DNA of 64,000 bases from Escherichia phage Ge15. The stretch lies in the sequence record PP359696.1, one strand, 5' to 3'. Position 1 is the first letter of the stretch. Every line of letters begins with the position of its first letter. The position numbers and the translations under genes were made by a program. Below the pieces are notes generated by a model that was given only the letters and a program-made list of their open reading frames with translations, did not search any database and was not told the origin of the DNA. Below, one piece after another: positions 37,843 to 40,728 of this stretch.

Positions 37843-38177
37843 TGAATTTAACTGATATAATTGATAATTGTCTTGAAAATGATACTGGCGATCATAGAGC
37901 GCTTGATTCTGAAACAGCACAGTTCATTAGAATAACTTTAATGAACGATACTCTGGTGAACAGTATTCATCCTTCTGTGTATGATGCTATTATTGTGACG
38001 AAGTATCCTGTTGAGCTTCACAAAAAGATGGCTGGTGCAATTTTTATTGATAAGAAAAACCGCTTTAAAGATGGGCAGAATATAATTAGTTCTGTTATTA
38101 AAAGTATAACTAAACTTCGTCACGAAATTTATCGTGTTGAAACTGCTAAATCTGCTTATCTGGTGATTATGAAATGA
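37839..38177 (+). CDS. hypothetical protein
   Basis: 112-aa ORF. Confidence 0.45.
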   Translation: MMNLTDIIDNCLENDTGDHRALDSETAQFIRITLMNDTLVNSIHPSVYDAIIVTKYPVELHKKMAGAIFIDKKNRFKDGQNIISSVIKSITKLRHEIYRVETAKSAYLVIMK

Positions 38178-38755
38178 AAGCGAGTACAGTACTTCAAATT
38201 GCATATTTAGTATCACAAGAATCAAAGTGTTGCTCCTGGAAGGTAGGAGCAGTAATTGAAAAGAATGGACGTATTATTTCTACCGGATATAATGGTTCAC
38301 CTGCCGGGGGTGTGAATTGCTGCGATTATGCTGCTGAGCAAGGTTGGTTGCTGAATAAGCCTAAACATACTATCATTCAAGGTCATAAGCCTGAATGTGT
38401 ATCATTTGGTTCAACTGATCGTTTTGTCTTGGCGAAAGAACATCGTAGTGCTCACTCTGAATGGTCGTCTAAAAATGAAATTCATGCTGAACTAAATGCG
38501 ATTTTGTTTGCTGCGAGAAATGGTTCTTCAATTGAAGGTGCTACTATGTATGTAACACTTTCTCCTTGCCCAGATTGTGCAAAAGCGATAGCTCAATCTG
38601 GTATTAAAAAGCTGGTTTATTGCGAAACATACGATAAGAATAAACCTGGCTGGGATGATATTCTGCGAAATGCGGGTATTGAAGTGTTTAATGTTCCTAA
38701 GAAAAACTTGAATAAGTTAAATTGGGAAAATATCAACGAATTCTGTGGTGAATAA
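38174..38755 (+). CDS. cd: dCMP deaminase
   Basis: 193-aa ORF; HAE...PCxxC zinc-binding deaminase motifs; matches T4 Cd. Confidence 0.9.
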   Translation: MKASTVLQIAYLVSQESKCCSWKVGAVIEKNGRIISTGYNGSPAGGVNCCDYAAEQGWLLNKPKHTIIQGHKPECVSFGSTDRFVLAKEHRSAHSEWSSKNEIHAELNAILFAARNGSSIEGATMYVTLSPCPDCAKAIAQSGIKKLVYCETYDKNKPGWDDILRNAGIEVFNVPKKNLNKLNWENINEFCGE

Positions 38756-39356: not shown

Positions 39357-39692
39357 ATGTCTGAAGTACAACAGCTACCAATTCGTGCTGTCGGTGAATA
39401 TGTTATTTTAGTTTCTGAACCTGCGCAAGCCGGTGATGAAGAAGTTACAGAATCAGGACTTATTATCGGTAAACGTGTCCAAGGTGAAGTTCCTGAACTG
39501 TGTGTAGTTCACTCTGTTGGTCCTGATGTTCCTGAAGGTTTCTGCGAAGTTGGTGATTTGACTTCTCTTCCAGTTGGTCAAATTCGAAACGTTCCGCATC
39601 CTTTTGTAGCTCTGGGTCTTAAGCAGCCAAAAGAAATTAAACAAAAATTCGTTACTTGTCACTATAAAGCTATTCCGTGTCTTTATAAGTGA
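39357..39692 (+). CDS. 31: co-chaperonin gp31 (GroES-like)
   Basis: 111-aa ORF matching T4 gp31. Confidence 0.9.
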
Positions 39693-39818
39693 TATAAATA
39701 ATAATATGAATTGAGTTTCAATTCTATGTGGTAGTCTACAACTGAGAGATCTGTCGAAAGAAGATGAAATTCAGAAGAACGTGACTACCGAGTTTTAATC
39801 TCTAACGAGAATTTTTAA

Positions 39819-40067
39819 ATGATTAAACAATTACAACACGCTCTTGAACTGCAACGAAACGCATGGAATAATGGTCACGAAAACTATGGTGCATCTATTG
39901 ATGTTGAAGCCGAAGCTCTTGAAATCCTGAGTTATTTCAAACATCTGAATCCTGCTCAAACTGCATTAGCTGCTGAGCTTCAGGAAAAAGATGAACTTAA
40001 ATATGCTAAGCCACTGGCTTCTGCTGCACGAAAAGCAGTTCGTCACTTTGTGGTAACACTGAAGTAA
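39819..40067 (+). CDS. rIII: rIII lysis-inhibition accessory protein
   Basis: 82-aa ORF; length and position after gene 31 match T4 rIII. Confidence 0.75.
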   Translation: MIKQLQHALELQRNAWNNGHENYGASIDVEAEALEILSYFKHLNPAQTALAAELQEKDELKYAKPLASAARKAVRHFVVTLK

Positions 40068-40465
40068 TTTATTGGAGAGTCACTGCCTTAGTGTGAAGTT
40101 AAAACGAGGAGCCGTCGAACTGTCTGATTAATGATTTGCGAATCATTATAGTTTTAAGACCCCGGCAGTTTTACGGTGTACCTCTTGAATGTTATTCTTA
40201 TAGCGGCAAGTGCATGCTACCCCGAGGTGATGGCCAATCGGGAGTACGCCTCAAGGCCTATATATCCATCAGTATATATCTTATCCTCGAGAAATCGAAC
40301 CCGGAACCTTTAAGCTAACGGTGTGCAACAGATAAGAGCTATAAGGTATGATGACGGGTTTATGGTTATCCTGGTCGTTAAATATTCAAAAACCTATGTT
40401 CCCCTTGAGGGCTTGCGCAGGCAATGCCAATAAGTCCTGCATTTTCATTTAAAAGAGAATTTATA

Positions 40466-40642
40466 ATGGCAAAACAAGCTAAAGCAAAGAAAGCAGTTGA
40501 AAAGAAAGTTGGTGATTCTAAACGCGCTGGCTACAAGCGTGGGTCGAACTCTCGTATCAATCAAACTGTTGAGAAGATCATGCGCCGAGCACGTGCGGTT
40601 CTTCGAGATGATGCTTCTCGTTTTGGTAAGCAGAAAGCATAA
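40466..40642 (+). CDS. small basic protein (30.9 position)
   Basis: 58-aa Lys/Arg-rich ORF from MAKQAKAKK; followed by terminator. Confidence 0.5.
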   Translation: MAKQAKAKKAVEKKVGDSKRAGYKRGSNSRINQTVEKIMRRARAVLRDDASRFGKQKA

Positions 40643-40647
40643 GTTGA

Positions 40648-40672
40648 GGACTCCTTCGGGAGTCCTTTTTTA
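40648..40672 (+). terminator. rho-independent terminator
   Basis: aggactccttcgggagtcct stem then T-run. Confidence 0.6.
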
Positions 40673-40695
40673 TTTTCCAAAGATTGCACAAAGTT

Positions 40696-40728
40696 GTTTA
40701 CAGTATAGTTCCTTTGTGATAGTATTAT
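40696..40728 (+). promoter_or_regulatory. T4-type early promoter
   Basis: gtttac 40696-40701; tagtattat -10 region. Confidence 0.5.

Follow-up and report, generated by a model that had tools for sequence, protein, structure and literature searches.

Does the untranslated stretch between rIII and 30.9 of Escherichia phage Ge15 represent spacer DNA, or does it encode an RNA with a conserved structure? A preliminary description of the locus had favored a structured RNA, and we followed this up in the window, i.e., the whole 64-kb stretch of DNA analyzed here, which represents a T4-like (Tequatrovirus) phage and is read along the early-gene strand.

Genomic setting of the rIII–30.9 gap

The gene order of the locus is cd (38174-38755), 31.2, 31.1, gene 31 (39357-39692), rIII (39819-40067), gap, 30.9, a strong intrinsic terminator located 3' of 30.9 (40646-40677), an early-type promoter (TTTACA-17-TAGTAT; 40697-40725) and 30.8. 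Comparison of open reading frames (ORFs) and annotations delimits an untranslated intercistronic region of 398 nt on the + strand (40068..40465), which is a mosaic of conserved RNA modules. The ATG of 30.9 is most likely the one at 40466 rather than at 40424, since this is the start annotated in T4 and the N-terminus MAKQAK is kept in all genera, extending to MAKQAKAK in every one of them. The true 3' limit of the gap is therefore 40465. A mechanical ORF list lets 30.9 begin with an ATG at 40424 (40424-40642); the 14 extra codons fall in a hairpin designated M3b (see below) and are not conserved as protein.

Neither a sigma-70-like promoter nor an intrinsic terminator was found within the gap (40068-40465), and inspection by eye identified no MotA box or late promoter inside it. 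A late-promoter-like TATAAATA is located at 39693-39700, directly upstream of rIII. Past rIII, the untranslated sequence contains two copies of GGAG, the target of the T4 RegB endoribonuclease, at 40072-40077 and 40108-40111. RIII is reported to influence RegB activation via ribosomal protein S1 (PMC9409239).

Composition and coding capacity

The GC content of 0.438 for 40068-40423 and of 0.473 for 40197-40346 compares with 0.360 for the whole window, and only 3.1% of all 356-nt windows equal or exceed that of 40068-40423, which agrees with the initial impression of a GC-rich island (top 3%). Perfect 8-bp hairpins number 28 in the window versus 11.6 +/- 3.1 in shuffles, and a single one is not remarkable alone. 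The hairpin highlighted in the preliminary description exists, although it spans 40129-40148 and does not begin at 40125. The folding-energy z scores are not unusual either: 40068-40196 and the central 150 nt both score -1.3, and the complete gap scores -1.0. The support for a structured RNA, which we consider strong, comes from the covariation of aligned relatives and not from folding energy.

The absence of a credible ORF, another feature noted at the outset, was borne out by the homologues of the central 150 nt (the core). All six frames contain at least one stop in 28 of 28 distinct homologues, the number used for this analysis (29 distinct sequences entered the covariation statistics), and homologues vary by indels of 1-9 nt, which shift the frame. 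The 60- and 45-codon ORFs of the gap matched no family in Pfam or PHROG. In GenBank records of related phages, coding sequences (CDSs) for a 'hypothetical protein' overlie the core, e.g., at 40124-40318 (corresponding to JB75_0063A in L001) and in L005 (1518-1643). Since each distinct homologue has all six frames interrupted, these annotated CDSs are probably not genuine.

A 150-nt RNA domain in the center of the gap

The core RNA domain comprises 150 nt (40197..40346, + strand). Its fold was predicted with RNAalifold from a plain, un-fitted MAFFT alignment of 17 core sequences, which yields the helices described here and from which the covariance model R1 was built. The closing stem P1 (40200-04/40338-42) opens into a perfect four-way junction without unpaired bases. 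One arm consists of P2 (40205-07/40256-58), a conserved internal loop (AAGUGCAU at 40208-15 opposite CUCAAG at 40250-55) and P3 (40216-27/40234-49), and P4 is the neighboring hairpin (40259-65/40272-78). The arm formed by P5 (40279-85/40331-37) terminates in a three-way junction with P6 (40287-90/40295-98), which is capped by a GAAA loop in most sequences, and P7 (40299-303/40319-24), which has a 15-nt loop and is joined to P5 by J7/5 (GCAACA, 40325-30). The inverted repeat cccga/tcggg, recognized beforehand, is a real covarying helix belonging to P3, although its strands are to be placed at 40221-25 and 40238-42.

The covariation statistics cover 29 distinct sequences belonging to 10 or more T4-like genera and include the kissing loop described below. 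Of 1,410 cells, 99.1% are standard pairs, 27 of the 49 core pairs change on both sides, and each helix contains at least one compensatory pair. None of 500 shuffles matched any of five covariation measures, and pairing falls to 26-40% in controls with slid partners. A scan for covarying unpaired columns singled out the two hexaloops, i.e., UGAUGG of P3 (40228..40233) and CCAUCA of P4 (40266..40271), which are perfectly complementary in every core sequence and form a 6-bp kissing loop. The variants are CGAUGG/CCAUCG, UGAUGG/CCAUCA, CUAUGG/CCAUAG and CAAUGA/UCAUUG, and the covariation tallies (helices 4 and 5) amount to CG:19 UA:8; GC:24 AU:2 UA:2; and GC:26 AU:1. A pseudoknot between the P3 loop and a downstream CGCC/GGCC, our first idea, was replaced by this P3-P4 contact, and the internal loop between P2 and P3 did not match the consensus of a K-turn or a loop-E when inspected by eye. 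About 20 unpaired bases of the core are invariant, represented by the motifs AAGnGCAU, GA(A/C)CC, GCUAA and G(U/A)GCAACAGAU.

G.U pairs are frequent in P4 (UG:26), P3 (GU:11) and P6 (UG:7) of the 29 sequences, and 26 of them have a U.G at the base of the P4 loop. Since such pairs would be C.A mismatches on the opposite strand, the gene-sense (+) strand is the folding one. The test for covariation across T4-like genomes thus decided clearly, for the central 150 nt, in favor of the proposed structured RNA and against spacer DNA. It lends strong support to the view that the center of the rIII–30.9 gap is a discrete and previously uncatalogued structured RNA.

Searches for known relatives

An Rfam 15 scan of the gap (cmscan, E<=10, four nested stretches) matched no catalogued family, with nothing at all in 40068-40400. 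The sub-threshold matches at the edges (Atu_C8, Phe_leader, MIR4221, PVX_3, Peptidase-S11 and DUF2815) are attributable to chance or to the terminator; those of Atu_C8 and Phe_leader coincide with the intrinsic terminator at 40646-40677. The weak DUF2815 RNA match (40408-40468, 14.5 bits, E 7.4) covers M3b and the 30.9 ribosome-binding region and is probably due to chance, though the layout of this phage-associated motif, a hairpin plus start codon, is alike. ARAGORN detected no tRNA or tmRNA in the window, and the Rfam tRNA model gave no match, in agreement with the earlier failure to fit a tRNA cloverleaf or a group I intron, for which ARAGORN and Rfam were both silent. Unlike in a tRNA, where the D and T arms are in contact, the kissing loop of the core links the second and third arms.

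A host origin or host mimicry of the core was rejected. BLAST searches against 5,426 E. coli genomes returned no match and those against plasmids just two 30-nt chance matches, and the invariant 20-mer of the core is absent from 185,579 bacterial and archaeal genomes. The full-text literature on the element, its sequence strings and T4 small RNAs yielded no description, and rIII and 30.9 are unmentioned in a T4 omics paper (PMC9697503). The core is accordingly an RNA for which neither a matching catalogued family nor a prior account in the literature was found.

Distribution and conservation of the core

BLAST of the gap against 50,697 phage records gave partial matches in 1,010 and a coverage of at least 80% in 179 of them, and the core (40197-40346) was found in 406 phage records from many genera. 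The covariance model R1 detects a single copy in the 64-kb window (180.9 bits), and one core in each of 19 of the 47 rIII loci from IMG/VR. Further cores are carried by 14 metagenome contigs and by Erwinia phage Cronus. The genera concerned are Tequatro-, Mosig-, Jiaoda-, Karam-, Moon-, Kanagawa-, Muldoon-, Kagamiyama-, Teguna- and Risoevirus. Wherever it occurs, the core is flanked by rIII and 30.9 and runs in the direction of these genes, as documented by 35 of 35 matches and the related GenBank phages examined. It is absent from T4, which matches the sequences on either side of the core at ~97% and lacks the middle, and from ~60% of the relatives; R1 with filters switched off returned only noise when T4 and other core-less phages were searched for a degenerate copy. 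Gain or loss of the core has taken place within at least four genera.

Compared with Mosigvirus, the core is 98-99% identical, M2/M3 86-98%, rIII 81-83%, gene 31 78% and 30.9 68-69%. The whole gap, with 86-99% identical nucleotides, thus ranks above both rIII and 30.9. Versus most other genera, the identity of the core amounts to 82-90% and that of rIII to ~71-77%; an exception is EcS1 (core 70% versus rIII 74%). Part of the near-identity of cores in different genera may stem from recent recombination and not from constraint. A pattern scan of metagenomes retrieved close T4-like relatives only, with the same context throughout. The divergent core of Cronus (L130, 882-1032) escaped the exact-pattern scans because GGUGUGC reads GGUGAGC, a change that is compensated by an A-to-U exchange on the opposite strand of P7. 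Counts of divergent members obtained from pattern scans are therefore too low.

Modules outside the core

Alignment of the rIII–30.9 gaps of eleven phages revealed a mosaic of recurring modules whose order varies among phages. M4 (40081..40095, +) is a 3-bp hairpin, CAC-UGCCUUAGU-GUG, with a conserved loop of 9-10 nt; it recurs in other genera at differing positions of the gap as CGC-UACCUUAGU-GCG and UGC-UACCAAAGU-GCA, with covariation at two stem positions as judged only by eye. Module X (40111..40177, +) is a long branched hairpin (GCCGU.../...ACGGU) predicted by RNAfold (MFE and centroid) that is common to T4 and Mosigvirus at 97%; it holds the perfect 8-bp hairpin mentioned above, and its energy z score of -1.3 is not significant. 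M3b (40417..40440, +), a GCAGG/CCUGC hairpin ahead of the 30.9 ribosome-binding region, is replaced in other genera by GGGAGC/GCUCCC or GGGAAC/GUUCCC.

The remaining modules, M2 and M3a, form a unit. M2 (40351..40402, +; 54.5 bits with the covariance model R2) is an H-type pseudoknot. Its stem 1 (40353-58/40370-76) carries a hairpin loop that pairs ~25 nt downstream (40364-67 with 40391-94), thereby spanning an A-rich linker (GUUAAAUA) with the sequence UUAAAUA at 40378-84. R2 finds a single M2 in the 64-kb window and likewise in each related locus, including that of T4 (L002, 1330-1381). Covariation testing of this downstream pseudoknot was likewise positive, more modestly so than for the core, with a score of 0.344 versus 0.172 in shuffles and 0.05-0.16 with slid partners. 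The signal is less clean than that of the core, in part owing to a second helix whose register varies from lineage to lineage. Overall, 77% of the M2 cells are paired (85% in stem 1, 72% in the pseudoknot), and both helices are backed by compensatory changes, as expected for an H-type pseudoknot, with both sides changing in four of six pairs of stem 1 and four of nine pairs of stem 2. The loop and tail covary as GGUU/AACC, UGUGAG/CUCACA, UUAGUAGUU/AACUACUAA and CAAGGUU/AAUCUUG. Most genera, like the window and T4, have the linker sequence UUAAAUA; it is replaced by UAAAACA in phages of the JD18 group and by UUAAUUU in fHe-Yen9-01. An 11-nt GAAA-tetraloop receptor (UAUGG/CCUAAG) in M2 was found in L061 alone and was therefore treated as a coincidence. 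M3a (40398..40415, +) consists of G-UU, a short hairpin CCC(C)-UUGA-GGG, with the stem variant CCUC/GAGG in L057, and a nearly invariant CUUG. Nearly all loci with M2 also contain M3a, immediately on the 3' or 5' side of the pseudoknot, and M2 itself is present in 40 of 41 loci encoding 30.9 and absent where 30.9 is absent.

The modules of the window are ordered M4-X-core-M2-M3a, and T4 is identical except for the missing core. NM4.3 and PG7 have core-M2-M3a; JD18, SonariX, PEi20 and Muldoon M2-(M4)-core-M3a; PS49 and EcS1 M3a-core-M2; and the loci L047, L050, L062 and L073 M3a-M2. In most arrangements, the core lies no more than ~10 nt from M2 or M3a. A simple circular permutation of the whole module set was dismissed, as genera vary in the cyclic succession of M4, core, M2 and M3; only the M2/M3a pair retains its cyclic order. 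The gaps of L047, L073, L052, L036 and L038 contain further shuffled leader modules, namely a long hairpin (GGCTCTATGC.../...CATAGAGCT), a hairpin CAGCAAAAGGTTAGCTG and, among these relatives, a hairpin directly upstream of 30.9 that sequesters the Shine-Dalgarno sequence (CUCC...GGAAGA).

Comparison of M2/M3a with the pistol ribozyme

The layout of M2 and M3a recalls that of the pistol ribozyme (RF02679; env25, PDB 5K7C), in which the P1 loop is also pseudoknotted with a downstream strand. The env25 pistol starts with CGUGG-UUAGGG-CCACG-UUAAAUA, i.e., with a P1 hairpin, the loop of which engages in the pseudoknot, and a 7-nt linker 3' of it (PMC7373991). This J1-2 linker is single-stranded with a conserved AAA (PMC6101554), and the UUAAAUA of M2 is identical to that of env25 (CGUGGUUAGGGCCACGUUAAAUAG...; sequence from PMC7373991). 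Further resemblances are a G soon after the 3' strand of the pseudoknot, the short third hairpin that follows, and the association with phages, which is documented for pistol RNAs (PMC4604425). As an analogue of P2, the CUUG of M3a is able to pair with C(A/G)AA past the M2 linker, and both placements of M3a, ahead of M2 or behind it, preserve the cyclic order P1, linker, CAA, PK3', hairpin, UUG.

The differences are nevertheless substantial. The P2 analogue of M2/M3a has only 3-5 bp (CAA/UUG-type) with a shifting register; the P1 loop has 11 nt versus 6; the equivalents of G33 and G42 and several positions of the catalytic core are not conserved; and the parts are permuted, with 40-190 nt inserted between them. 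The P3/P2 junction of pistol RNAs, which is the cleavage site, is strictly 2 nt long and usually GU (PMC4604425), whereas the junction of M2/M3a is C in the T4 type, GC in the JD18 type, AC in the permuted type and CU in Cronus. The Rfam Pistol model gave no match at E<=10 in stretches of 1501, 411, 88 and 91 nt. M2 thus shares with pistol RNAs a covariation-backed P1-loop pseudoknot and a 7-nt linker with AAA, but the unit stays below the gathering threshold and lacks a covarying P2 with the strict 2-nt junction. Since these defining tests failed, with the model silent, a P2 of 3-5 bp and a junction of 1-2 nt that is not GU, the assignment of M2+M3a as a pistol ribozyme was rejected, and M2 is filed as an H-type pseudoknot with a pistol-like layout.

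Proposed function of the gap as a 30.9 leader with an optional domain

Gene 30.9 (40466..40642, +) encodes a very basic protein of 58 aa with 19 K/R and 5 D/E. The product belongs to PHROG 1427 ('unknown function') and matched nothing in Pfam or among PDB sequences. Given its 19 K/R and the lack of a known family, gp30.9 could plausibly bind RNA, which makes it a candidate for autogenous regulation. Autogenous control is known for T4 gp32, gp43 and RegA. Yersinia phage vB_YenM_TG1 (L062, 1889-2533) keeps the leader modules M3a-M2-M4, while an unrelated ORF of 214 aa is joined to the 30.9 N-terminus (MKLSKAKAKTAVKETV) or takes its place.

Our preferred interpretation, to which we assign a probability of about 45%, is that the gap constitutes a modular structured leader of 30.9 that acts as RNA and may carry an optional aptamer-like domain. 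It would be co-transcribed with rIII and 30.9 on the + strand. M2 and M3a (40351-40415) would represent its constant part, traveling with 30.9 in almost every T4-like phage and most likely serving as an operator or enhancer that sets the translation of 30.9 or the processing of its mRNA; by analogy with the autogenous controls of gp32, gp43 and RegA, the regulator may be the basic gp30.9 itself. The 30.9 leader resembles the pseudoknot leader of T4 gene 32 and the operators of gp43 and RegA in being a structured RNA with proposed binding of its own product. It differs from them by the lack of sequence similarity and by being far longer and modular, and binding of gp30.9 is putative.

The core would be a self-contained 150-nt domain of this leader, with two adjacent arms locked by the kissing loop and a second sub-domain that contains ~20 invariant unpaired bases. 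Compact folds of this kind, in which the junction bases do not vary, are the look of ligand- or protein-binding RNAs, and the core would accordingly recognize a specific partner and modulate in cis the constant element next to it. The core itself is non-coding and dispensable, with a conserved + strand fold at a fixed genomic address; partner binding, the action in cis and the controlled target are deduced from these properties. As T4 and ~60% of the relatives are devoid of the core, expression of 30.9 does not need it. A simple cis switch fits less well with the lack of a conserved expression platform and with the variation in module order and in the distance between core and 30.9 start among genera; arrangements such as core-M2-M3a, M2-M4-core-M3a and M3a-core-M2 are awkward for a simple switch. 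Given the missing platform and the dispensability of the core, a trans-acting decoy, a ribozyme and a riboswitch are therefore live alternatives to the modular leader.

The first of them, possible but on balance improbable, is that the core is a stable trans-acting noncoding RNA that is excised from the rIII–30.9 transcript at its closing stem and captures, in the manner of a decoy or sponge, a protein of the host or the phage, e.g., a defense sensor, a nuclease, S1 or an RNA chaperone, so that its address in the gap would be merely historical. A self-contained fold with a closing stem and a position that is not fixed relative to the 30.9 start would suit such a role, as would the patchy occurrence within genera, which is reminiscent of accessory or counter-defense genes (window versus T4, JS98 versus its relatives, PG7 versus L047 and L050, fHe-Yen9-01 versus phiR1-RT). 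The 98-99% identity of the core between Tequatrovirus and Mosigvirus, with rIII at ~82%, suggests cassette exchange. Yet the core was never encountered in another genomic context in the genomes, plasmids and metagenomes searched, it lacks a dedicated promoter or terminator, and no host RNA resembles it. The phi29-family packaging RNA (pRNA), a phage RNA of ~120-170 nt that is transcribed from its own promoter and whose loops pair between molecules to form a ring on the portal, is comparable with respect to the helical junction and the two covarying complementary loops. To our knowledge, packaging of the T4 type needs no RNA. In contrast to pRNA, the core is missing in T4, and its covariation fits loop pairing within or between molecules alike.

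A self-cleaving ribozyme is the less likely second alternative. Either M2+M3a would be a divergent, permutable pistol-like element that cleaves the transcript between rIII and 30.9 and has the core inserted into an open junction of its fold, or the core would be a new class of its own. The UUAAAUA linker and the preserved cyclic order of the parts speak for the former, and the patchy spread of the core and its invariant junction bases, which are typical of small ribozymes, for the latter. They are opposed by the silent Pistol model, by the deviating P2 analogue, junction, G33/G42 equivalents and loop size, and by the fact that no ribozyme model matches the core.

It is more doubtful still that the core is a classical riboswitch that senses a metabolite, e.g., a nucleotide-related one, and switches 30.9 by the formation of P1. 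The core has much in common with riboswitch aptamers such as the L2-L3 contacts of the purine and lysine classes and the four-way junction of the cobalamin class, namely a closing and covarying AU-rich P1, a multi-helix junction, arms that kiss by Watson-Crick pairing, invariant junction nucleotides and the location in a 5' leader. It is unlike them in lacking any sequence or Rfam similarity to a known class and an expression platform, since no terminator, anti-terminator or partner sequestering the ribosome-binding site is found beside P1 in any arrangement; in addition, the core is optional, and the downstream gene is non-metabolic, encoding a tiny basic protein that is neither an enzyme nor a transporter.

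That the region does not act as RNA, i.e., that it is a decayed protein gene or a DNA-level site (recombination hotspot, origin or cruciform), appears effectively excluded: the 'hypothetical protein' annotations in several GenBank records and the indel hotspot among relatives are outweighed by compensatory substitution pairs, strand-specific G.U pairs and a conservation above that of the flanking genes, and the recombination site and the degraded gene contemplated in the preliminary description found no support, as no reading frame or protein family survives in homologues with stops in six frames (28/28) and frame-shifting indels.

Implications for T4-like phages

RNAs with such covariation, a kissing loop and invariant junctions are usually riboswitches, ribozymes or parts of RNA-protein machines. 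An RNA of complex fold has been left unannotated, or mis-annotated as 'hypothetical protein', in the T4-like phages, which have been studied as thoroughly as few other viruses, probably because T4 itself lost the core. The domain is a candidate for a new RNA function that is accessible in easily handled E. coli phages (JS98, JB75), with T4 as a natural knockout. It is a tempting but tentative idea that the core founds a new functional class of RNA and/or that M2+M3a is a divergent, circularly permuted pistol-type ribozyme. If true, the new class could be a self-cleaving ribozyme, a riboswitch or a decoy directed against a host defense or RNA-binding protein, and a pistol-type M2/M3a unit tolerating the core as an insert would make the pair an allosteric ribozyme. 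The leader provides a handle on why a non-coding gap outdoes its neighboring genes in conservation, and its conserved pseudoknot, which is present in T4 itself, offers the first handle on the regulation of the orphan gene 30.9.
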